A DNA stretch of 64,000 bases from an uncultured Candidatus Saccharibacteria bacterium. Lineage in GTDB: Bacteria > Patescibacteriota > Minisyncoccia > UBA6257 > 2-01-FULL-56-20. Of this stretch, positions 9,033-41,428 are shown piece after piece. The translations under genes were made by a program, and so were the position numbers. Every line of letters begins with the position of its first letter. The stretch's first letter is position 1. The stretch covers positions 637,710 through 701,709 of the forward strand of contig OZ246418.1 in the NCBI GenBank assembly GCA_965231155.1. Direction: 5' to 3'. The notes under the pieces were generated by a model. It was not told the DNA's origin, made no database searches, and was given only the letters and a program-made list of their open reading frames with translations.

Positions 9033-9782
9033 ATGACTAAGACTTCCTGGGAGAGAGTGGCGCCTTGGTATGATGAACTGCTTAAAGGGGATGACACCTA
9101 CCAGCTCAAGGTGATTTTGCCACAGCTTGAACGCTTGATGGAGATTAAGCGAGGCGAGGCTATTTTAGACCTGGCGTGTGGGCAGGGTTTTTTCTCAAAT
9201 CATTTCGAGAGGGCTGGTGGTGAGGTGATTGGCGTCGATGCTTCTCGACAGCTTATTGCTCGAGCCAAGGAGGCTTTTCGTCGAGTGAAATTTTATGTCG
9301 GTCAGGCTGACAAACTTTCTTTTATAAAAAATAAAACTGTCGATAAGGTAGCTATTATTTTAGCCATCCAGAACATTCAGGAAGTTGGTTCAGTTTTGAA
9401 GGAGTGCGCTCGTGTGATGAAGCCGGGAGGACGTTTGTTTATCGTGATGAATCATCCGAGCTTCCGTATTCCGAAGGCGAGCGGTTGGGGGTGGGATGAG
9501 GAGTATAAAACGCAGTATCGAAGAATCGATCAGTATCTGAGCGAGTCTAAGGCGAAGATCCAGATGCATCCTGGAGATGATCCGGATAGCCATACACTTT
9601 CTTTTCATCGTCCGTTACAGTTTTATTTTAAAACTTTGAAAAATAATGGTTTTTTAGTACGAAATATGGAGGAGTGGGAGTCGCATAAAAAGAGTCAGCC
9701 GGGGCCGAGGGCTAAGGCAGAAGATAAGGCACGCAAGGAGATTCCTCTTTTCCTTTTCCTTGAAGCGGTTAAATCAGAATAA
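9033..9782 (+). CDS. Class I SAM-dependent methyltransferase.
   Basis: SAM-binding motif I is ILDLACGQGFFS and motif post-I is VIGVDAS. The substrate is unknown. Confidence 0.65.
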   Translation: MTKTSWERVAPWYDELLKGDDTYQLKVILPQLERLMEIKRGEAILDLACGQGFFSNHFERAGGEVIGVDASRQLIARAKEAFRRVKFYVGQADKLSFIKNKTVDKVAIILAIQNIQEVGSVLKECARVMKPGGRLFIVMNHPSFRIPKASGWGWDEEYKTQYRRIDQYLSESKAKIQMHPGDDPDSHTLSFHRPLQFYFKTLKNNGFLVRNMEEWESHKKSQPGPRAKAEDKARKEIPLFLFLEAVKSE

Positions 9783-9784
9783 AT

Positions 9785-10492
9785 ATGAAAGTCCATAGAT
9801 TCATTGGGGGGTTCGATCTTGGCGATAAGAATATCGTCGTTCAGGATACGGAGTTGGTTCATCAGATAGTGAAGGTTTTGAAGTTACAGAAAGGGGAGGC
9901 GGTGATTCTAAGCGACGGTCAGGGCATCGAGCGTCTTGGAGAAATTAAAAATATTGGTCGTAATCAGGTGATGATTGAGTTCAAGGAAAAGATGCGGAAA
10001 AATAGAATGGAAGGACCTGAGGTAGTGTTGTATTTAGCCATCCTTAAGAAAGAGAATTTTGAGTTGGTGGCACAGAAGGCCACTGAGGTGGGTGTTTCTA
10101 CGATTGTGCCGATTATTACCGAACGAACAGTAAAATTAAACCTCCAAAGTGAACGGATAAAAAAGATTATCAAGGAGGCGTCCGAGCAGTCTGGTCGAAG
10201 CAGTGTTCCACAGTTATTACCCACTATTTCTTTTTTAGAATCATTAGGACAAATACCAAAAAACGAGGAGAGATGGTTTTTTGATATCGAGGGGGAGTCG
10301 TTGCAGTCAGTTTCTCGAACGAAAGAAATGAAGGGCAGGATTCATATTTTTATTGGTCCAGAAGGTGGTTGGAGTGAGGAGGAGAAACTGCAGGCAAAAA
10401 AGAAAGGTTGCAAGATGATTTCTATGGGTAGTTTAACTTTGCGTGGAGAGACGGCGGCCATTATTGGTTCTTATCTCGCGGTTAACCAGTAA
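9785..10492 (+). CDS. rsmE: 16S rRNA (uracil1498-N3)-methyltransferase RsmE.
   Basis: An N-terminal PUA-like region is followed by the C-terminal SPOUT motif IFIGPEGGWSEEE. Confidence 0.75.
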   Translation: MKVHRFIGGFDLGDKNIVVQDTELVHQIVKVLKLQKGEAVILSDGQGIERLGEIKNIGRNQVMIEFKEKMRKNRMEGPEVVLYLAILKKENFELVAQKATEVGVSTIVPIITERTVKLNLQSERIKKIIKEASEQSGRSSVPQLLPTISFLESLGQIPKNEERWFFDIEGESLQSVSRTKEMKGRIHIFIGPEGGWSEEEKLQAKKKGCKMISMGSLTLRGETAAIIGSYLAVNQ

Positions 10493-10494
10493 CT

Positions 10495-11526
10495 ATGTCG
10501 AAGTTTTCCTTGGATCAGTATGATTTTTCTTTTCCTGAAAATCTGATTGCTCAGAAACCGGTTTCACCTCGGGATGCGGCCCGGTTAATGGTCTATGACC
10601 GAAAGGAGAAGAGGGTGGCGTTGGACACATTTGCCCACCTTGGTCGCTACCTTCCTCCACGTTCTGTGTTGGTTATTAATGAGACAAAAGTGGTGCCCGC
10701 TCGGCTGACTGTGCATAAGAGAACTGGTGGTCGGGTGAAGCTACTTTTTCTAAGAGAGCAGGATGGTTTCTGGGAGGTTTTGTCGGATAGAAAATTAAAA
10801 ATAGGGGAGGTGTTGAGTGTTGATGCGACTAAGAAATTAGTCGTTCAGAAACAGGCCGAAGCAATTTTTTATCTTCAGCCATCATTCCCAATCAGTCAGA
10901 CGTTTCGTTTGCTGGATATTTGTGGTGAAACTCCTATTCCGCCATATATTAAACACTCACCACTTTCTGAGAAGAAATTACGAGGAGAGTATCAGGCAGT
11001 TTTTGCAAAAAAGAAAGGTTCGGTGGCAGCGCCGACTGCTTCGTTGCATTTTACAAATAAGTTGATTCAAAGCTTGGAAAAGCAGGGTCATAGCGTGGTG
11101 CGACTGGTTTTGCATGTTGGACTCGGCACTTTTTCTCCGGTTACAGAGGAGCAGTTGAGAGCTAAAAAATTGCATCAGGAGTTTTATGAGATTACTCCTC
11201 GGGTCGCGGAATTTTTAGAGAGAGCAAAAAAGGAGGGAAGGCCGATTATCCCAGTGGGGACGACTGCCCTAAGAGCTCTTGAATCAGCGGCCGGGAGGGG
11301 ACCGAGACTTGAAAAATTATCTGGAGAGACAGACTTATTCATCCAGGAGGGGTACAAGTTTAAGTTTACGAGCGGGTTGATTACAAACTTCCATGTACCC
11401 CGTTCAAGTTTATTAATGCTTGTATCAGCTCTGGCCTCTCGGAAAGAGGTTCTGAGTCTTTATCGCCTGGCAGTTGAGGAAAAATTCAGGTTATTTTCCT
11501 TTGGTGATGGGATGCTTATTTTTTAG
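10495..11526 (+). CDS. queA: S-adenosylmethionine:tRNA ribosyltransferase-isomerase.
   Basis: FSFPENLIAQKPVSPRDAARLMV and …VVPARL match QueA. The 343 aa length is also typical of QueA. Confidence 0.85.
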   Translation: MSKFSLDQYDFSFPENLIAQKPVSPRDAARLMVYDRKEKRVALDTFAHLGRYLPPRSVLVINETKVVPARLTVHKRTGGRVKLLFLREQDGFWEVLSDRKLKIGEVLSVDATKKLVVQKQAEAIFYLQPSFPISQTFRLLDICGETPIPPYIKHSPLSEKKLRGEYQAVFAKKKGSVAAPTASLHFTNKLIQSLEKQGHSVVRLVLHVGLGTFSPVTEEQLRAKKLHQEFYEITPRVAEFLERAKKEGRPIIPVGTTALRALESAAGRGPRLEKLSGETDLFIQEGYKFKFTSGLITNFHVPRSSLLMLVSALASRKEVLSLYRLAVEEKFRLFSFGDGMLIF

Positions 11527-11587
11527 CCACAGAGAGGAAAAAATGCTACAATGCCGGGGTCGAACATTTAACTAAATTTAATCAAAA

Positions 11588-12385
11588 ATGACAGATTATA
11601 AAGCGAAGTTAGGGATAGTGTATGCCATTGTTGGTTTGGGCATTATGTATGCAGCGATTGTCTATGCTGGTGCTTTCGCGCGATCGATCCAGCCGTCTTC
11701 ATTTCGTAGTTTTTCGGTTGCTGGCGAGGGGAAGGTGGTGGCCGTGCCGGACGTGGCTCAGTTTTCTTTCGGTGTAGTCACTGAGGGAGGAAAAGATTTG
11801 GCTAAGATTAATACTGATAATACCAATCAGTACAACAAAGCCGTTGATTTTTTGAAGAGCAAAGGAGTGGCTAAGGAGGATATTGAAACAACTGAAAGTA
11901 GTATCCTTCCTCGTCAGCAGACCTATAACTGTTATCAGTCAGTGGTAGTTGGTGGCGCTGTTCGTCCATGTCCACCAGCAGAAGTTGTGGGGTATACCGT
12001 GAGAAAGAGTGTTTCGGTAAAGATTCGTGACTTTGCGAAGATTGGTGAGGTGATGGCCGGCGTCGTGGATAATGGCGCGAATGAGGTTAGCGGTTTGAGC
12101 TTTATGATTGATGATCGGAGCAAGGTAGAGAATCAGGCACGTGAGAAAGCCATTACTCAGGCTAAGGAAAAAGCGAAGGCTATTGCGAAGGCGGGCGGTT
12201 TCCGCTTGGGGAGACTCTTGGCTATCGAGGAGGGTGGAATGATGCCTTACTATGATCGTGGATATACTGTGGCAAATGAAATGCTAGGTTTTGGTGCAGG
12301 TGGAAAAGCATCTCCAGCAGCCTCGATTGAACCAGGCTCAGACAAGGTGATGATCAATGTTTCCTTGCGGTACGAAATCAACTAG
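11588..12385 (+). CDS. SIMPL-domain (DUF541) protein, anchored by an N-terminal TM helix.
   Basis: The layout resembles the 26 kDa periplasmic immunogenic protein family (…VPDVAQFSFGV…, SIEPGSDKVMINV…). Confidence 0.55.
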   Translation: MTDYKAKLGIVYAIVGLGIMYAAIVYAGAFARSIQPSSFRSFSVAGEGKVVAVPDVAQFSFGVVTEGGKDLAKINTDNTNQYNKAVDFLKSKGVAKEDIETTESSILPRQQTYNCYQSVVVGGAVRPCPPAEVVGYTVRKSVSVKIRDFAKIGEVMAGVVDNGANEVSGLSFMIDDRSKVENQAREKAITQAKEKAKAIAKAGGFRLGRLLAIEEGGMMPYYDRGYTVANEMLGFGAGGKASPAASIEPGSDKVMINVSLRYEIN

Positions 12386-22110: not shown

Positions 22111-22797
22111 CTACGACCCGCAGTCAATGTCCGGCACGCCGTCGTGGGCGACCGGATCGTTCGGATCATCGGGGTCGCCACCCTCGACTAACTTTTTCAA
22201 CTCGTCGAGAGTGGAGAGCGAGGTTATCTTCTCCTGACTTTCTTCGAGGAGTTGAATCTGCCCCTCGACCAGGTCAAGAAGGTCCAAGATCCTGGGATAT
22301 GCGATCGTAACTGCCGAGACTAGATCGCATTTGGACTTTCTCTCCAGGCAACGAACCCAGGCGATCGGAGTATCAAGAACTCCTTCGCATAGGTTCTCCA
22401 GATTCCTGGAGTAGAGCGGTGCCGTCACTGACGGTGTCCCAACACTTGGGCCGACGACGTCGGCGTTGTTATGGGTGACACCAGTGTGTCCGGGTCCAGG
22501 GTGGCATTGTCTCTCGATGTGGCCGAAGTATCCATCGTGCTCTGTGCCTGAATGGATCTTTGGTAGTCCACTCAAGCAGGACTTTCCGGCCTTCTGCTGG
22601 CCTGTTTCGAGGTCAGCCTGTGCCTTGTCCAGGCACTTTGTCAGTACAGTGAATACGACCTTCCCATACCGACCCAGTCTCTTGCCCGCTTCTTTCTGGC
22701 AGGAGAGCAGGGACTTCTCCGGTGTCACGTTGGCAGCCTGAGAAGGAGCCGCCGCCAACACCGCCACCACCACCAACAACACTGCAAAGCGTTTCAT
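22111..22797 (-). CDS. Secreted Cys-rich hypothetical protein encoded in an island of about 59% GC, likely horizontally acquired. The start is set at MKRFAVLL.
   Basis: Signal peptide MKRFAVLLVVVAVLAAAPSQA and many Cys. GC counted over 100 nt at 22441-22540 is 59%, against about 43% in neighbouring genes. Confidence 0.55.
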   Translation of the reverse strand: MKRFAVLLVVVAVLAAAPSQAANVTPEKSLLSCQKEAGKRLGRYGKVVFTVLTKCLDKAQADLETGQQKAGKSCLSGLPKIHSGTEHDGYFGHIERQCHPGPGHTGVTHNNADVVGPSVGTPSVTAPLYSRNLENLCEGVLDTPIAWVRCLERKSKCDLVSAVTIAYPRILDLLDLVEGQIQLLEESQEKITSLSTLDELKKLVEGGDPDDPNDPVAHDGVPDIDCGS

Positions 22798-22960
22798 CGC
22801 GTCCTCCGTATTTGGGCTCCCGTAGGAGCACGTTGTGGTTTCGCACGCTAACCAATTTATAACACATATACGAGAAAAATCAAATTTCACAAAAAGAGGG
22901 GATAGATACACTTTTCCACAATAGGATAGATAAGAGTTCTGACCTATAATAAAACGACAG

Positions 22961-33660: not shown

Positions 33661-34902
33661 ATGGCAAACGACTATGGTGATTTAAATGTCACCCACCGAC
33701 TTGGATATCTTGATCTTCTTAAACTCTCAATGAGGGTTTTTCGGACTAAGTTGATGCGCACGCTCCTTACCATTTTTGGTATGTCGGTTGGTATCGGCAC
33801 AGTCCTTTTTCTGGTTTCGCTTGGTTATGGCTTGCAGTACATTTTGATTGGTCGATTGGTTACCTCGGAGGACTCTCTCATTACTCTTGAAGCGTTGTAT
33901 CCACCTGAGGTAGCAAGAAGCCTCACTCCAGCTGATTTAGAAGATATTCGGAAGATACCAGAAGTGGCCGAGATGAGTCCAGTTGCGGAATTCCCCGGTG
34001 AAATACGATCTGGCGATTTGCCAGGTTTTGCTCTTGTCCAGATTGTGGGGAGTAATTATTTTCGTCTTGCTGGTGTAAAACCTGATATTGGATCGGCGTT
34101 TAACGATGCTGAACCAGGCTTGGTCCTCTCGAACTCAGCGATGCAGTTGTTCGATGTAAGTTCAACCCCGTCCTCTTTGGGTAAACAGTTCGCTTTAAAG
34201 ATTGCCTATCAGTCAGATAATGGAGAGGAGTTGGCATCGCCAATTGAAGTTTCGCTCTCTAGCACTGTTCCCCTGGTCGGTGTTTTGACTGAAGACTCTC
34301 AGACACCAACGGTGCTTATTTCTAATAAATTTGTCCCTCAAGCACCACCATTTTTCAGGAAGGTGCTTTTGAAGGCGACTAATATCGATACCGTGGAAAT
34401 TCTTCGTGATAAATTAATCAACAAAGGATTCTTTATTTCAGCGAAGATTGATCTGGTAAACCAAGCTAGGGGAGTTTTGAGAGCAATTACCATTACACTT
34501 GGGGTATTTGGTATTACTGCTCTTTTCGTAGCCGCTATTGGAATGTTTAACACTATGATTGTTGGTTTCTTGGAGAGGATTTACGAGGTGGGTATTATGA
34601 AGTCATTAGGTGCCACCGATCGAGATATTCGGAATCTTTTCTTGATGGAATCTTCGATGCTTGGTTTCTTGGGAGGCGTTGGTGGCATCGCTTTAGGCTT
34701 TAGTTTGGGTCAGATTGGAAATCTGATAGTTAGTACGCTTTCAAGGAGGTTAGGTGGGGAATCAATTCAGCTTTTCATCACGCCCCTTTGGTTTATGGGT
34801 ATGATTATTGCTTTTTCTATTCTCATTGGATTTATGGCTGGTTTTTGGCCAGCGCGCAAGGCTGCCACTCTGTCGCCGAAGGAAGCTTTCGTAAGAAAGT
34901 AA
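33661..34902 (+). CDS. ABC transporter permease of the FtsX/MacB type, with a large extracytoplasmic domain.
   Basis: It has an N-terminal TM helix and a periplasmic domain of about 230 aa. The three C-terminal TM helices carry the MacB-like motif …MKSLGATDRDIRNLF. Confidence 0.75.
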   Translation: MANDYGDLNVTHRLGYLDLLKLSMRVFRTKLMRTLLTIFGMSVGIGTVLFLVSLGYGLQYILIGRLVTSEDSLITLEALYPPEVARSLTPADLEDIRKIPEVAEMSPVAEFPGEIRSGDLPGFALVQIVGSNYFRLAGVKPDIGSAFNDAEPGLVLSNSAMQLFDVSSTPSSLGKQFALKIAYQSDNGEELASPIEVSLSSTVPLVGVLTEDSQTPTVLISNKFVPQAPPFFRKVLLKATNIDTVEILRDKLINKGFFISAKIDLVNQARGVLRAITITLGVFGITALFVAAIGMFNTMIVGFLERIYEVGIMKSLGATDRDIRNLFLMESSMLGFLGGVGGIALGFSLGQIGNLIVSTLSRRLGGESIQLFITPLWFMGMIIAFSILIGFMAGFWPARKAATLSPKEAFVRK

Positions 34903-34962
34903 GAGTTTTTTCTCTTAGTTGTTTGATTTTCTGCATTGTGTAACTATGAGTAGTGTAATCCT

Positions 34963-36132
34963 ATGAGAATCTTTATTAGTCGATTTCTTACTGTACTTTT
35001 TGTCCTGCTGGTACTTTCACCACTTTCTACCGAGGCGGCCGCTTTTAAGTATGCAGGGTGGCTGCCATTTTGGGAGAAGCAAAAAGGGGCTTTCGATCTG
35101 GCAGTGAATATCGATAGGCTTGATGAGGTCAGTCCATTTTCTTATGAGGTGCGTCCAAATGGTACCCTGGTTGATAAATTGAAGCTGAAAGAAGGTTTCT
35201 GGCCAATTTGGTTGCAATCAATGAGAGAGTTAGGAGTAAAGAATATTCCTACTGTTGCGTGGTTTGATGGTGAGGGGATACACAAACTACTGAGCAACAC
35301 CAAGAGTCGACGTGCTCACGAAGACGCGATTGCAAAGCTAGTAAAGGATATGAAGTTTGATGGTATTGATATTGACTACGAGGCTAAAAAAGCAGAAACC
35401 ATTGATTACTTCTCTCTATTTATAAAAGGACTAGCCATTCGTCTCCATCCGATGGGGAAGACTCTCTCTTGTACGATTGAGATTCGTATGCCAGTCAGTT
35501 CTCGGTACGGAGTAGTTCCTGGTGAGCCAATTGAATACGCGAATGATTACAAGGTTCTTAATAAGTACTGCGATCAAGTTCGGTTGATGGCTTATGACCA
35601 GGGTGGCGTCGATAAGTTGTTGAATACCGAGAAGGGCAATGGCCGTCTTTATGCACCGGTGGCTGATCCCGCTTGGGTGGAGAAGATTCTCCAGGAGGTT
35701 TTAAAGACAATTAGCCCAAAGAAGGTGATGCTCGGAATTCCGACCTATGGCTATGAGTATCAGGCGACTTGGGCAGATGGCATCACGACCTACCGTCGGT
35801 TGAGAAGTATTAATTTCTCTACGGCTATGACTTTGATGAACTCCTTAGGACTGACTCCTGAAAGAAATAGTGCTGGCGAGCTTGGTTTCTGGTATACCTC
35901 AAGTAGCCTCATCGAAGTCTCATCCTCTTTGAGGCGAGATGTTTCTTCTTCTTTACCCCCAGAAATTGCTTCTTCGACAGCCCGAGGAGGAATCACTCGT
36001 TTTGTTTCTTTGTCAGATGCCGAAGCCGTGGCTCAGAAAATTGCGTTAGCTAAAAAATACAAGTTGAGAGGCGTTGTTTTTTTCAAGTTTGACGGCGGAT
36101 TTGATCCCAATATTTGGACTAAAATTCAGTAG
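34963..36132 (+). CDS. Secreted glycoside hydrolase family 18 (chitinase-like) protein.
   Basis: A signal peptide and the GH18 catalytic motif FDGIDIDYE (DxxDxDxE). Confidence 0.7.
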   Translation: MRIFISRFLTVLFVLLVLSPLSTEAAAFKYAGWLPFWEKQKGAFDLAVNIDRLDEVSPFSYEVRPNGTLVDKLKLKEGFWPIWLQSMRELGVKNIPTVAWFDGEGIHKLLSNTKSRRAHEDAIAKLVKDMKFDGIDIDYEAKKAETIDYFSLFIKGLAIRLHPMGKTLSCTIEIRMPVSSRYGVVPGEPIEYANDYKVLNKYCDQVRLMAYDQGGVDKLLNTEKGNGRLYAPVADPAWVEKILQEVLKTISPKKVMLGIPTYGYEYQATWADGITTYRRLRSINFSTAMTLMNSLGLTPERNSAGELGFWYTSSSLIEVSSSLRRDVSSSLPPEIASSTARGGITRFVSLSDAEAVAQKIALAKKYKLRGVVFFKFDGGFDPNIWTKIQ

Positions 36133-37487: not shown

Positions 37488-37495
37488 AATTTTTG

Positions 37496-37566
37496 CTGGG
37501 GGACAGGGAATCGAACCCCGATTCACGGCTTCAAAGGCCGCTGTCCTACCGTTAGACGATCCCCCA
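37496..37566 (-). tRNA. tRNA-Gln with anticodon UUG. CCA is not encoded.
   Basis: The minus strand reads TGGGGGATCGTCTAACGGTAGGACAGCGGCCTTTGAAGCCGTGAATCGGGGTTCGATTCCCTGTCCCCCAG. The 7-bp acceptor stem is UGGGGGA/UCCCCCA, the anticodon loop is CUUUGAA, and the T-loop is TTCGATT. Confidence 0.85.
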
Positions 37567-37804
37567 ATTTCATTTTCTCACTTAATAGCTTCTTTCCTTT
37601 TGGTGTTTTGTAGAATCTTTCTGTCCGAAAGGCTTCATATCTATCATCGAACATCTCACGATAGACAAGTTTAATTGGTAAGCGACCTTTCGTAGAACGT
37701 ACCCTTCCTTGACTATGGCTTCTTAGTCTTTCTTCAAGATTCGACGTACAACCAATATAGAGTTTACCATCTTTTTCTCCCTGGAGAACGTAGACAGAAT
37801 ACAT
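37523..37804 (-). CDS. Small GIY-YIG nuclease-family protein, YhbQ/UPF0213-like. The last 14 or so codons of the ORF read through the 5' half of tRNA-Gln, so the true 3' end is uncertain.
   Basis: MYSVYVLQGEKDGKLYIGCTSNLEERLRSHSQG…YKT matches the GIY-YIG core. The ORF continues through the tRNA sequence as LGDRLTVGQRPLKP* before reaching TGA. Confidence 0.6.
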   Translation of the reverse strand: MYSVYVLQGEKDGKLYIGCTSNLEERLRSHSQGRVRSTKGRLPIKLVYREMFDDRYEAFRTERFYKTPKGKKLLSEKMKLGDRLTVGQRPLKP

Positions 37805-37868
37805 AAAATTATTGTACCTACCGTTAGCCTCGCCCATAGGCTGGAGCCTTTAAGGGCTACGGCCGAGG

Positions 37869-37957: not shown

Positions 37958-38449
37958 ATGAATTTTGCTAAAAAACTCTCTCAAATATTACCAATAGTAA
38001 CAGCTGAGGCCCACTGTGATGTGCCGTGTGGAGTCTATGAACCAACAACGGCAAAGATTGCCGCGAAAACCGTTGAAAAGATGGTTCTCCAGCTTCATGA
38101 GTTGAAGATGCCAGCTGACATGGCTGATGATCATTCGAGATTGGAGTATGCGAATGCCGTTTCTCGAAGGATTGCCACCAAGGAGAAGCATCTACAGATT
38201 TGCAAGGATGAACTCTCTTTGCTTTGGTCGGATTATTTCAAGCCAGAACATCTTGAGAAGTATCCAGAATTGCATACGATGTTCTGGAACGCCTTGAAAC
38301 TTTGTTCGAAGAACAAGCAAGCGGTGGATGGTGATCTGGCGAGAAAATTGACTGTGGCCGTTGATGAGATTGCGAAGATTTTTTATGAGACCAAAGGTGA
38401 TCCGAGTCGTTATGAAGCCTACCAGCAGATTACTGACAAACTTTTTTAA
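37958..38449 (+). CDS. sodN: Nickel-containing superoxide dismutase precursor.
   Basis: An N-terminal pro-peptide is followed by the Ni-hook motif HCDVPCGVYEP (His-Cys-x-x-Pro-Cys-Gly-x-Tyr) and then a four-helix bundle, about 14 kDa after cleavage. Confidence 0.8.
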   Translation: MNFAKKLSQILPIVTAEAHCDVPCGVYEPTTAKIAAKTVEKMVLQLHELKMPADMADDHSRLEYANAVSRRIATKEKHLQICKDELSLLWSDYFKPEHLEKYPELHTMFWNALKLCSKNKQAVDGDLARKLTVAVDEIAKIFYETKGDPSRYEAYQQITDKLF

Positions 38450-38726
38450 ACACCTTCTGTTCGTGGTCAAAGTGGAAGGGGAGAGTGCTTTCCCTGAGTT
38501 GATTCCGGGAAGATATTATCTGGCGAGTAGCCTCAAGAGACCACAAGTGGGGAGGTTTGTAGTTTTTTCGAATCCTTTGAATCACGGGCAGATTTTAGTG
38601 AAGAAGGTCCAAAGGTTTGAGGGTGATTCCCTCTGTGTCCAGGGGACTGTTTCTTGGGCAGTTTCTTCTCGTGAGATTGGTCGTATTCCTCTTCGATCTA
38701 CTCTTGGAGTTCTTCTAACGCATTAG
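38412..38726 (+). CDS. sodX: S26-family signal-peptidase-like NiSOD maturation protease. The start is uncertain; in-frame ATG 38412 and GTG 38463 both overlap or abut sodN.
   Basis: The SPase I box B-like motif VKVEGESAFPEL contains a Ser nucleophile. The box D-like motif is ILVKKVQRFEGDSL. The gene lies immediately downstream of sodN, as in described NiSOD operons. Confidence 0.65.
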   Translation: MKPTSRLLTNFFKHLLFVVKVEGESAFPELIPGRYYLASSLKRPQVGRFVVFSNPLNHGQILVKKVQRFEGDSLCVQGTVSWAVSSREIGRIPLRSTLGVLLTH

Positions 38727-38812
38727 AATAGATCTTGCGTTTTATCTAATATTGTTGTTTAATATTTTTAGCAGTCTTGGCGGATAGTCGAGACAAAAGA
38801 GAGGAGCTCGTC

Positions 38813-39562
38813 ATGAGGAAGTTGCTTGGAGTGGTCGCGCTATGCGTGGCCATGGTTGGTCCTCCTTTGGTCGTTTACGCTGGAGGTGAACCCTTGATTG
38901 CCGTCGTCGGCGACTACGGTATGCAGGTCTGTCCCGACGCAAAGGGGCAGACCGACCAGTACGGCCAGTGTGGCCGAGCGTCCGTCGCTCGGACGCTCGA
39001 GAGGATATTCCGGGATCAGCTCTCGGGATCGCCGTGGCGTCGAGGGAAGGTTGTCTCGTTGACCGGCGCTGGTTGGCCGGCCACCCAGTGGACGAACCCA
39101 CTAACGGAAATCGAGTGCCCGCCGTCGCTGACGCCGGATTCGCGATTCCCGTTTTCAGGCGTCCGCAAGCAGGCCTGCGACAGTGGGGTGTCGCTTAAGG
39201 ACTCGATCGTTACGTACTTGGGAGAAGTTCCAGACTACGTCTTGATCAGTTTTTCTAGCGATAATTACCTTTTCGTCACGCCGACCGAGGAGGTTGATGC
39301 GATCGAAGCGATCGCAAACACGCTGGAGACAGCGGGAGCGGAGGTGTTGATCTCCACTCCGCTCCTGGAGGATCTTTCGGGATCCATGTTCCCTTGGCGG
39401 GAACAGGTCGCGACGGAGCTTCGAAGTCGAGGGTTGGTGAATGGCCCCGACTTCATGCTCGTACCGCTTCCACGGTACGACGTACAGTACCTGTCACCCG
39501 AGGGAGCAACGGCAGTTGCTTACCTCTGGTGGGCGAAGTTGCAACCGCAACTCGTCTACTGA
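38813..39562 (+). CDS. Secreted hypothetical protein encoded in an island of about 60% GC, possibly an SGNH/GDSL-like hydrolase (weak). The start is set at MRKLLGVVAL.
   Basis: Signal peptide MRKLLGVVALCVAMVGPPLVVYAGG. The motif IAVVGDYGM resembles SGNH block I but lacks the canonical Ser. GC is far above the flanks. Confidence 0.5.
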   Translation: MRKLLGVVALCVAMVGPPLVVYAGGEPLIAVVGDYGMQVCPDAKGQTDQYGQCGRASVARTLERIFRDQLSGSPWRRGKVVSLTGAGWPATQWTNPLTEIECPPSLTPDSRFPFSGVRKQACDSGVSLKDSIVTYLGEVPDYVLISFSSDNYLFVTPTEEVDAIEAIANTLETAGAEVLISTPLLEDLSGSMFPWREQVATELRSRGLVNGPDFMLVPLPRYDVQYLSPEGATAVAYLWWAKLQPQLVY

Positions 39563-39564
39563 TT

Positions 39565-39600
39565 GATTTCTATCTCTTGCCCACCGTGCATTGCGCACAG
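39565..39600 (+). terminator. Rho-independent terminator.
   Basis: CCCACCGTGCA-TTGCG-CACAGTGGG is followed by TTTTTTATTT. Confidence 0.65.
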
Positions 39601-39664
39601 TGGGTTTTTTATTTCAAAATTAAGTTTTTCACAGGTAAATATCTGAATCTATGTGTTAAAATAA

Positions 39665-41428
39665 GTGGGAATGAAGACCTCCCGTCGTTTTAAAAAACAG
39701 AGGCAATTTTTTGACGTAGTAGAACATCCTTCCGCTCGACCGAAGAGGTTTTTCCCGCGATTCAGTAAGGGTTTTCTTGTGAATCTTCGTCCTCATTTCT
39801 TCCGTCGTTTTCCGTTGATTACCGCCTCGGGACTTTTGCTTATTTTTCTTGGAGCATTTTTTGGGAGAGATTTCTTCATCAAAGCAGAATCTGCGACTTT
39901 TTATCCCCAAACTTGTCTTGGGACTTGGCGGAATGCAATTCTCGCTCAGGCTCAGCCGGAAAGTGTTTCTATGAGTGGATCAATAGATGGAAGTAATGCC
40001 GCAATTTATCCTGGCAACAGAGAGGATATCTTTTGTGGTGGGTTTGTGGGTAACGATAGCCAGGAGTTGGGGAGTATTACCCATGTGGGAGTGACACTTG
40101 CTTGGAGGATTGGAGAAGAGGTGCCGGTTGCTTCAGGTACGCCAGGAGTATTTTTACCACTTCCGCCAGAAACGGAATCCACCAGTAGTAGCGAGTCTTC
40201 GATTACTGAAGAAGCTACTACTACTGAAGCGAAACCAGCAACAAGCGAAGAATCCAAGGAATCATCTCCTGTTCTTCCAGCTGAGGAGGCAGTAATCAAG
40301 GAGGAGTCTCGAGAAGAAACACCAGTTGCTTCTCCGGCTGAAAGTTCAGCGTCTGCACCGGTTGAAGAGACACCACCCCCGACTCCCGCTCCCGAACCTG
40401 TCTCGGAACCTGTTGTAACGCCAGTCGCTCCTGAAGCCTCTCTTTTTAATATTTTTATTTCCCGAGCATTTGCCGAGGAGATTGTGTCATCAGAATCTAC
40501 TACGGCTGAGGTTATAGTGCCTCTCGGTCCACCGATTCAGGCGGTCATTGAAGAACTTCCTAGCTCAACAGAGAAGATCGAAGAAATGGCGACTTCAACT
40601 ACCGAAACACCAATAAAAATTGAGACTGAAGTTTTGCCTCCCGATAATAACTTCTTGATGGTGAGTTATAGCTTTGATAGTTCGAACTGGACAGAGTTGG
40701 GCAAGGTGAATGTAGAAAATTGGCGTCAACTAACGTTTTCTCTGCCAGTATCCTCTTGGGCAGAACTGAGAAATTTACAGATTCGAGTCCAGGGAATTTC
40801 CTCAACAGTTGATCCCTTGCCTCCGGTTTTTCTGGATGGAATGTTGCTTGAAGTTCACTACGATAAAGGGATTCTTGAGGATCCTAATGATAAACCAGAG
40901 GTGGTAACGGTTGCTGGCCCAGCGTCTGTTTCTCCGGAAGAACTCCAGATGACTCAGTCGCAACTTCAGTTGGAGTTGGACAAGGATATCCGAGTTGCTC
41001 CGCACTATAAAGAGAAAGAATGGATTACATTCAATGCTCGAGAAGGGGAGCAGTATGAGGTATATCTGAAGAACGAAGCGACGGGAGAAATCAAACGCCT
41101 GACTACCACACCGAGCAATGAAACCTATCCGGTGATAAAGAATGGCCAGGTAGCCTGGGCGTATTCAGAGGGTTCTACTGGTCGTAAGCGTGGTGAGATT
41201 TTTTTGTATGATATTGCTTCTCAGATAACGATTCAGGTAACTGATGATGAGTTTGTTGATGAGCTTCCAGATTTTGATGAGCAGGGTGTTTTGAGCTGGC
41301 AGAAGACTGATGCTGCGGGAGTTACGCATGGATTTAGATATGACCTAGCTGAAAGGAAGGTGCATCAGATCGATACCACGCCTTTTACTACAGTCGCACC
41401 CTTAGATGAAGGAGGTGATAATCTATAG
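39665..41428 (+). CDS. Membrane-anchored extracellular protein of 587 aa with an acidic Ser/Thr/Glu/Pro-rich linker. Hypothetical.
   Basis: A basic N-terminus is followed by a TM helix (LITASGLLLIFLGAFFG). A long low-complexity linker (ETESTSSSESSITEEATTTEAKP…PPPTPAPEP) precedes a structured C-terminal region. Confidence 0.5.
   Translation: MGMKTSRRFKKQRQFFDVVEHPSARPKRFFPRFSKGFLVNLRPHFFRRFPLITASGLLLIFLGAFFGRDFFIKAESATFYPQTCLGTWRNAILAQAQPESVSMSGSIDGSNAAIYPGNREDIFCGGFVGNDSQELGSITHVGVTLAWRIGEEVPVASGTPGVFLPLPPETESTSSSESSITEEATTTEAKPATSEESKESSPVLPAEEAVIKEESREETPVASPAESSASAPVEETPPPTPAPEPVSEPVVTPVAPEASLFNIFISRAFAEEIVSSESTTAEVIVPLGPPIQAVIEELPSSTEKIEEMATSTTETPIKIETEVLPPDNNFLMVSYSFDSSNWTELGKVNVENWRQLTFSLPVSSWAELRNLQIRVQGISSTVDPLPPVFLDGMLLEVHYDKGILEDPNDKPEVVTVAGPASVSPEELQMTQSQLQLELDKDIRVAPHYKEKEWITFNAREGEQYEVYLKNEATGEIKRLTTTPSNETYPVIKNGQVAWAYSEGSTGRKRGEIFLYDIASQITIQVTDDEFVDELPDFDEQGVLSWQKTDAAGVTHGFRYDLAERKVHQIDTTPFTTVAPLDEGGDNL

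Follow-up and report, generated by a model that had tools for sequence, protein, structure and literature searches.

SGNH/GDSL proteins (PF00657, PF13472; E. coli TesA/TAP, PDB 1ivn) share an alpha/beta/alpha fold, with catalytic and oxyanion residues in alignable blocks I, II, III and V. The SGNH lipase SrL of Streptomyces rimosus loses its activity on all tested substrates when Ser10, Asn82 or His216 is replaced by Ala (PMC10779480). In systems that pair an SGNH domain with a membrane acyltransferase of the AT3 or MBOAT type, the SGNH domain works outside the cytoplasm on the acyl groups of envelope glycans (PMC7448272, PMC9487903). Some plant GDSL proteins are dead, as At1g54030 (MVP1/GOLD36) has lost lipase activity and gained a new, non-catalytic role (PMC4757993). 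Single-gene transfers into Patescibacteria have also been documented, lysophospholipase genes included, with old transfers masked by amelioration (PMC12455944). Here we describe a gene at 38813-39562 on the plus strand of a 64,000-nucleotide stretch, called the window below, from an uncultured Candidatus Saccharibacteria bacterium (contig OZ246418.1 of assembly GCA_965231155.1). Its product has the SGNH scaffold with the catalytic positions replaced, and with moderate confidence we take it, from its sequence, for a horizontally acquired, exported SGNH pseudoenzyme that would bind its target rather than cut it.

The gene starts with an ATG at 38813, ends with a TGA at 39560-39562, and encodes 249 amino acids (aa). 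The NCBI call P0001 (236 aa) begins at 38852, 13 codons past the ATG at 38813 that is preceded by a Shine-Dalgarno sequence, so the signal peptide is truncated in that public call. The Logan call P0014 is the complete 249-aa form.

An earlier note on this DNA had described the gene as an island of high G+C content (GC), and recomputation bore this out, as the composition is not host-like. GC is 59.5% in the gene and 44.8% across the window, and the gene ranks first among all 750-nt windows (z = 4.9). At third codon positions (GC3), it is 0.687 compared with ~0.40 in 43 other long open reading frames (ORFs) of the window, and at 4-fold degenerate sites (GC4), 0.634 compared with 0.393 in host genes. 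GC at the first and second codon positions (GC1 and GC2) is likewise similar to that of the putative donor discussed below. When the protein is re-encoded with host codon usage, 50.0% GC is expected while 59.6% is observed, and the observed-minus-expected GC is 0.096 for the gene against 0.003 ± 0.018 for host genes. Thus, both amino-acid content and codon choice are foreign-like. The GC excess ends at the borders of the coding sequence (CDS), with intergenic GC of 36% upstream and 32% downstream. Because five assemblies, made independently from different runs, match the window with 100% identity over the gene, its flanks and both junctions, the island is no assembly chimera.

Direct searches with the window protein found little. 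Pfam and NCBIfam scans returned no family at E <= 1, and phmmer against PDB returned noise only. A word-indexed search of 5.8 billion clusters yielded the protein itself and one homolog, P0002 (58% identity). With an exhaustive HMMER search (phmmer) against 1.84 billion representatives, 12 proteins were retrieved, the best non-self match being P0003 (E 4.5e-11). This search added 11 distant relatives of 27-37% identity, and a profile search added more. The relatives carry four canonical SGNH blocks (GDSTT.G, NLGVPG, LGTND and DG.HLT.GG), and most of them match Pfam Lipase_GDSL or Lipase_GDSL_2, four above the gathering cut-off. Hence, the search of SGNH/GDSL family models that the earlier note had proposed fails with the window protein itself and succeeds with its relatives. 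Homology to the Pfam SGNH families is transitive only, through those relatives that pass the cut-off, which the window protein does not.

Circularity was avoided by building a profile from 18 canonical members only, with the window protein left out. Aligned to the window protein by hhalign, this canonical-only profile gave a probability of 99.6% and E of 1.4e-23 over 225 columns, and it also matches solved SGNH esterases by sequence. An AlphaFold2 model made with a 12-sequence alignment reached a mean predicted local distance difference test score (pLDDT) of 82.8 and a predicted template modelling score (pTM) of 0.81. In a Foldseek search against PDB with this model, the top 50 matches were all SGNH proteins (TesA, YxiM, Axe2, PatB and CE2/CE3 esterases), each at probability 1.00 and with a target-normalised template modelling (TM) score of ~0.7. 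The viral structure library BFVD held generic SGNH domains, none closer. According to the model, the three-layer alpha/beta/alpha SGNH (flavodoxin-like) fold is present. The SGNH resemblance, which had seemed faint in the sequence, thus reflects true homology and a common fold.

Residue states at the catalytic positions were read from three separately made alignments, including those by MAFFT and hhalign, and are as follows.

Block I nucleophile: Ser in 19 of 19 canonical relatives; Tyr35 (GDYG) in the window protein; Tyr in P0002
Block II oxyanion Gly: variable in canonical relatives (G, A, N, S, E); Gly87 in the window protein; Phe in P0002
Block III oxyanion Asn: Asn in 16 of 19 canonical relatives; Asp150 in the window protein, or a gap with hhalign; Asp in P0002 (NKDD)
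Block V Asp: D, E, S or L in canonical relatives; Asp223 in the window protein; His in P0002
Block V catalytic His: His in 19 of 19 canonical relatives; Tyr226 (DVQY) in the window protein; Tyr in P0002

Tyr at both catalytic positions is confined to the two low-GC copies. The window protein keeps Asp34 of the GDS motif and has Gly87 at the block II position, which varies among the canonical relatives and is Phe in P0002; His residues are absent from it altogether. With nucleophile, base and oxyanion Asn lost, the window protein, judged by its alignments, cannot use the SGNH mechanism. The motifs from which an SGNH hydrolase had been suspected read differently in this light, since IAVVGDYG corresponds to block I with Tyr where the Ser should be, SFSSDN to a degenerate block III from which the oxyanion Asn is missing, and the block V His has become Tyr; a working SGNH hydrolase is thus contradicted. 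In the literature searched, no bacterial SGNH protein was found described in which Tyr replaces both Ser and His. Peptide-pattern scans for the Tyr variant in GTDB genomes and Joint Genome Institute (JGI) metagenomes gave no additional copy.

What has been kept is mainly structural. The window protein retains the family-wide invariant residues W93, C102, C122, P183, G211-P212-D213, W239 and L243. An inserted loop (residues 38-56) has brought the Tyr clade another Cys pair, C40/C53, so that two disulfides probably form, one family-wide (C102/C122) and one clade-specific (C40/C53). Compared with the SGNH/GDSL superfamily at large, this loop is extra, and the C102/C122 pair is specific to the small family.

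The product is predicted to be exported via Sec, in agreement with the secreted protein proposed earlier. By a heuristic check, residues 1-23 form a signal peptide with MRK at the start, an 18-residue hydrophobic core and a cleavage site VYA|GG. Hydropathy of the core is 2.98 over residues 4-15, two of the first five residues are K/R, the site is AxA-like, and beyond the core the protein has no further hydrophobic segment. P0002 has an equivalent signal with cleavage at ALA|AE. These signal features and the conserved Cys pairs fit an extracytoplasmic location. A lipoprotein signal was also considered, and rejected because VALC has Leu at -1 and Cys11 is missing in P0002.

The canonical relatives P0003, P0007 and P0029-P0037 form an unnamed family of exported ‘lysophospholipase L1-like esterases’ on metagenome contigs of ~73-76% GC. 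They align with the window protein over the full length at 24-34% identity, share the invariant residues with it, and all have signal or lipoprotein leaders. On the other hand, they keep Ser and His in 19 of 19 cases and usually GxND, whereas the window protein and P0002, which have Tyr/Tyr and the additional Cys pair and sit in genomes of ~45% GC, form a long branch of their own.

Several relatives are named ‘lysophospholipase L1-like esterase’ or ‘OafA/YrhL’ by JGI, and P0011 is a fusion of Acyl_transf_3 and SGNH domains (P0011/P0021, JGI name OafA/YrhL). P0030 lies on a contig of a 74% GC organism (L003 1-8723, JGI Ga0070741_10000201), directly after a 394-aa Lipase_GDSL_2 protein. Nearby genes encode Acyl_transf_3, sulfatase-family, PMT_2 glycosyltransferase and hexapeptide acetyltransferase proteins, and the organism has Ku and LigD as well. 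This region looks like an envelope-glycan modification cluster. Together, the AT3 fusion and the AT3, PMT_2 and hexapeptide-acetyltransferase neighbourhood imply O-acyl modification of envelope glycans for the canonical family. The fusion, the P0030 neighbours and the structural match to PatB thus link the family to AT3-SGNH proteins (OafA, OafB, OatA) and to the PatA/PatB system, in which the acyltransferase is of the MBOAT type. The window protein, by contrast, stands alone without the catalytic triad that those systems need, and no AT3 or MBOAT gene was found adjoining either copy. With the dead GDSL proteins of plants it shares a scaffold kept under selection after catalysis was lost; those proteins differ in being eukaryotic, of independent origin and with other substitutions. 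Non-catalytic binding at a carbohydrate-esterase active site is reportedly the subject of Montanier et al. 2009, to go by its title.

The second copy, P0002, sits on contig L001 (SRR29305604, ~45% GC) amid genes for methyltransferases, L19, GreA and a class I lysyl-tRNA synthetase (LysRS). There too, the gene is a single-gene GC island, with 55.4% GC and GC3 of 0.59. GC4 is 0.55 in the L001 copy against 0.43 in its host, and 0.63 in the window copy against 0.39. The flanking genes of the two copies have none in common. Comparison of the window copy with P0002 gave a nonsynonymous rate (dN) of 0.36-0.39, a synonymous difference (pS) of 0.73, which is near saturation, and a ratio omega of ~0.13. 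Such a low omega means that the gene is functional and not decaying, and the synonymous saturation means that the acquisition is ancient rather than recent. The host of the window copy has a GltX protein closest to those of Patescibacteria and Saccharibacteria metagenome-assembled genomes, at 53-61% identity, and the contig from which the window comes measures 808 kb.

Horizontal acquisition from a very GC-rich bacterium is the most likely origin, as the earlier note had proposed in pointing to a high-GC source. DNA was fetched for two canonical relatives; their contigs have 73-74% GC, and the genes themselves GC3 of 0.90-0.95 and GC4 of 0.92-0.97. In the remaining canonical sequences, Ala, Arg and Pro are similarly abundant. 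Since the derived states of the window copy (Tyr/Tyr, Asp for Asn, the additional Cys pair) recur in the L001 copy, as do the non-coding flanks, both would go back to a single acquisition.

When amelioration was modelled with F81 from GC4 of 0.90-0.95 toward each host, the predicted 4-fold identity between the copies was 0.33-0.35. The observed identity at shared 4-fold sites was 27/78 = 0.346, a rough estimate with a binomial standard error (SE) of 0.054. In this model, the 4-fold identity fits acquisition near the split of the two lineages, without extra selection on GC. Compared with the documented transfers into Patescibacteria, the present one would be old yet compositionally visible, and has its own promoter, leader and terminator.

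These elements make up a cassette whose parts are listed below.

38731..39616, plus strand: whole cassette, the stretch homologous to L001 by blastn and MAFFT, with promoter, leader, CDS and terminator
38735..38763, plus strand: promoter-like element with -35 TTGCGT (38735-38740), a 17-nt spacer and -10 TTTAAT (38758-38763), from the window-L001 alignment
38774..38794, plus strand: 5′ leader hairpin with an 8-bp stem and GGAUA loop, ~4 nt past the putative transcription start
38801..38806, plus strand: Shine-Dalgarno sequence GAGGAG, 6 nt before the ATG; AAGGAGG in L001
38813..39562, plus strand: CDS for the 249-aa exported SGNH-fold protein without catalytic Ser, His and Asn
38813..38881, plus strand: predicted Sec signal peptide, residues 1-23, cut after VYA (heuristic)
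38915..38917, plus strand: TAC for Tyr35 at the block I nucleophile Ser position (GDS to GDY), from the alignments
39260..39265, plus strand: Asp150-Asn151 in block III (canonical GxND), with the oxyanion Asn replaced by Asp, or a gap with hhalign
39488..39490, plus strand: TAC for Tyr226 at the block V catalytic His position (DxxH to DVQY), from the alignments
39579..39614, plus strand: intrinsic terminator, GCCCAC(C)GUGC, loop AUUGC, GCAC(A)GUGGGU, U-run

In promoter, leader and terminator, the two copies agree at ~80% of positions. The ~74 nt upstream (38733-38806) have 80% identity, compared with 64% nucleotide identity in the CDS. The promoter-like element reads TTGCGT, 17 nt, TTTAGT in L001; a consensus promoter scan gave no call for the element at 38735..38763. 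In both copies the leader folds into the hairpin, with no change in the GGAUA loop, and all four stem differences preserve pairing in this comparison of two sequences, one being compensatory (U-A to C-G) and three one-sided. The strong terminator reported in the earlier note does exist, only at 39579-39614 instead of 39565-39600. Its hairpin, with a 10-bp interrupted stem and dG of -16.5 kcal/mol (z -3.6; 0 of 200 shuffles fold as well), is followed by the U-tract UUUUUUAUUU. The L001 terminator is conserved, and its stem is a perfect 11 bp.

Taken together, these features suggest that the gene is transcribed as its own unit from the candidate promoter. 5′-proximal stem-loops often stabilise bacterial transcripts, and stabilisation of the transcript would be the likeliest role of the 38774-38794 hairpin as well. 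An Rfam search of the cassette gave sub-threshold noise only. The leader motif was absent elsewhere in the window, and an exact metagenome scan for the conserved motif gave two matches, both by chance, within CDSs of a LytTR regulator and a nonribosomal peptide synthetase (NRPS).

The following course of events best accounts for these observations. A member of a small exported SGNH/GDSL esterase family, or one of partners of membrane acyltransferases, as seen on very GC-rich bacterial contigs, would have been acquired once by an ancestor in a low-GC, small-genome lineage of the Patescibacteria/Saccharibacteria kind. After the acquisition, the gene would have drifted partway toward host composition, and SGNH catalysis would have been lost (Ser to Tyr, His to Tyr, Asn lost); the structural residues C102, C122, GPD 211-213, W93 and W239 were kept, and the gene stayed under purifying selection. 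The gene would be expressed as its own transcription unit, with the conserved promoter, 5′-proximal stem-loop and intrinsic terminator. The protein would most likely act non-catalytically, its former active-site cleft binding an acylated or glycan ligand of the ancestral kind or a new one at the cell surface.

Several results weigh against this account. The Tyr variant is known from two sequences only, which makes the conservation of Tyr35 and Tyr226 weak statistical evidence. Gene context offers no hint of function, since the two copies have no neighbour in common. In a neighbour-joining (NJ) tree, midpoint-rooted with no outgroup, the Tyr pair is a long basal branch near P0004 and not clearly nested among the high-GC members; the direction of transfer thus rests on composition and the ancestral Ser and His. 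The donor phylum was not assignable from the neighbours on the high-GC contigs, as Ku and aldehyde dehydrogenase were best matched at only 45-48%, in Gemmatimonadota and Actinomycetota respectively. Nor do the cassette borders have a mobility signature, with only short chance matches from a repeat search. There is no integrase, transposase or tRNA target at the borders, the tRNA-Gln and GIY-YIG genes being 1.2 kb upstream, outside the cassette. A tblastn search against phages and plasmids found no relatives of the gene.

The main rival, which we hold unlikely, is that the protein is still an enzyme with a rewired site, performing non-SGNH hydrolysis or transfer of acyl or other groups. Tyr35 could serve as nucleophile or acid, or a Ser that both copies have (S82 in block II or S228 beside Tyr226) could work with Asp34 or Asp150. 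In favour of such an enzyme are the strong purifying selection, the retention of Asp34, the surrounding GD.G, the GPD motif and W93/W239, and the fact that Tyr is the substitute at both positions in each copy. However, with no His in the window protein there is no general base at the canonical site, and two supposed parts of the site differ between the copies (the block II Gly, G87 vs Phe, and the block V Asp, D223 vs His). In addition, loss of Ser, Asn or His to Ala already abolishes activity in SrL (PMC10779480), and no SGNH member with a Tyr nucleophile was found described in the literature searched. At the other extreme, the gene could be a decaying relic, a pseudogene in the making after transfer, as the lost catalytic residues and the extreme rarity (two lineages among 5.8 billion protein clusters) might suggest. 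We consider this very improbable, because the ORF is intact in both lineages at omega of ~0.13 and because signal peptide, four Cys, promoter, leader hairpin and terminator are all conserved.

The composition itself could be read in other ways. High GC might be no remnant of transfer but be actively maintained in some secreted-protein genes of the lineage, through mRNA structure or stability, codon choice for slow translation or export, or amino-acid composition. Persistence of the island in both copies despite near-saturated synonymous sites speaks for this, together with the further small GC-rich ORFs on L001 and another island of the window at 22111-22911, which is GC-rich also in a syntenic ortholog of 46% identity (GC3 0.68 vs ~0.40) and has no high-GC relatives. 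We nonetheless find it quite unlikely for the gene at 38813-39562, since all the more distant relatives are Ala/Arg/Pro-rich, with both of those whose DNA was fetched on 73-74% GC contigs, since plain amelioration yields the observed 4-fold identity with no added selection, and since GC1 and GC2 are donor-like too. An artefact of assembly or binning, in which a high-GC fragment was joined into a low-GC contig, would produce the abrupt GC step seen at both gene ends. It is refuted by the five identical assemblies and deserves practically no credence; the AT-rich regulatory flanks are conserved with the second copy, and the gene GC is intermediate (59%) rather than donor-like (73-76%).

Within the preferred reading of an acquired pseudoenzyme that binds its target, a more specific version can be conceived, which we regard as a long shot. 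The protein might be a dead O-acyl-glycan esterase or transferase taken from the high-GC host lineage of the epibiont, and now used as a lectin-like adhesin or sensor. If this is true, the Patescibacteria cell recognises acylated cell-wall glycans of its host, and the gene is a portable, self-regulated cassette with a stabilising 5′ hairpin that moved between sites or lineages.

Patescibacteria have tiny genomes and depend on hosts, and few of their host-recognition molecules are known. A captured and selected exported protein stripped of catalysis is thus a testable candidate for a surface-binding factor. The case also indicates that homology which Pfam and NCBIfam miss can be brought to light via a bridging family and a structure model, and that an old transfer can be roughly dated from incomplete amelioration. 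Acquired genes and pseudoenzymes on a very common fold are already known in kind, and this is one more of each; what would be new is a bacterial SGNH pseudoenzyme, horizontally acquired, in which Tyr replaces both Ser and His and whose gene lies in a conserved monocistronic cassette.

The earlier note had paired the gene with the other island, here delimited as 22111-22911 on the minus strand, as two unrelated secreted-protein genes acquired repeatedly from one high-GC donor. The two proteins are indeed unrelated, as no similarity was found between them. The shared donor is unsupported, since the one relative of the 22111-22911 island that was examined sits at ~47% GC in synteny and no high-GC homolog was found. 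Its product is a Cys-rich, probably helical secreted protein with no family match, and its predicted structure has a pLDDT of 41. Three relatives with 44-46% identity were found, all in Logan assemblies, and the C-terminal motif DG[VI]PDIDCG is conserved. The ortholog at L085 6001-6669 (46% identity), on a contig of ~47% GC, is syntenic, with genes for a He_PIG protein and a ~3190-aa protein on its two sides, and is itself a GC island (57.5% GC against 46.8%, GC3 of 0.68). The 22111-22911 island is therefore the better case for the idea of maintained high GC. Incidentally, L001 contains at 9372-12226 a run of small hypothetical ORFs with GC of 0.49-0.60 and GC3 of up to 0.74 on a 45% background, which suggests further foreign or compositionally odd genes.

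The neighbourhood of the gene in the window includes, in order, a VIT1 transporter, tRNA-Gln, a GIY-YIG protein, sodN and a sodX-like S26 peptidase on one side, and surface proteins of 587 and 1717 aa on the other, so the neighbours named earlier (sodX and the gene at 39665) are as claimed. At 37958-38449 (plus strand), the Ni superoxide dismutase gene sodN encodes a pro-peptide and the nickel hook HCDVPCGVY (TIGR02753, 152.8 bits). Its 3′ end is overlapped by the sodX-like gene at 38412-38726 (plus strand), a short and divergent S26 peptidase scoring 26.6 bits against an NCBIfam cut-off of 63.25 bits. Both genes have host-like GC. A functional link of the gene at 38813-39562 to sodN and sodX was considered and rejected, since the second copy is not beside sod genes.

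Farther upstream, the GIY-YIG ORF at 37523-37837 (minus strand, 104 aa) extends ~44 nt into the 5′ part of tRNA-Gln(UUG) at 37495-37566 (minus strand). Independent gene calls give the same ORF, which may be a homing-endonuclease-like or UPF0213-type gene abutting the tRNA. A few kb upstream of the gene, at 33661-36132 (plus strand), lie a MacB/FtsX-type permease and a secreted GH18 (chitinase-like) protein. From 39665 on, very large Ser/Thr-rich surface proteins dominate (587, 1717 and 3198 aa), which fits a surface-interaction lifestyle.

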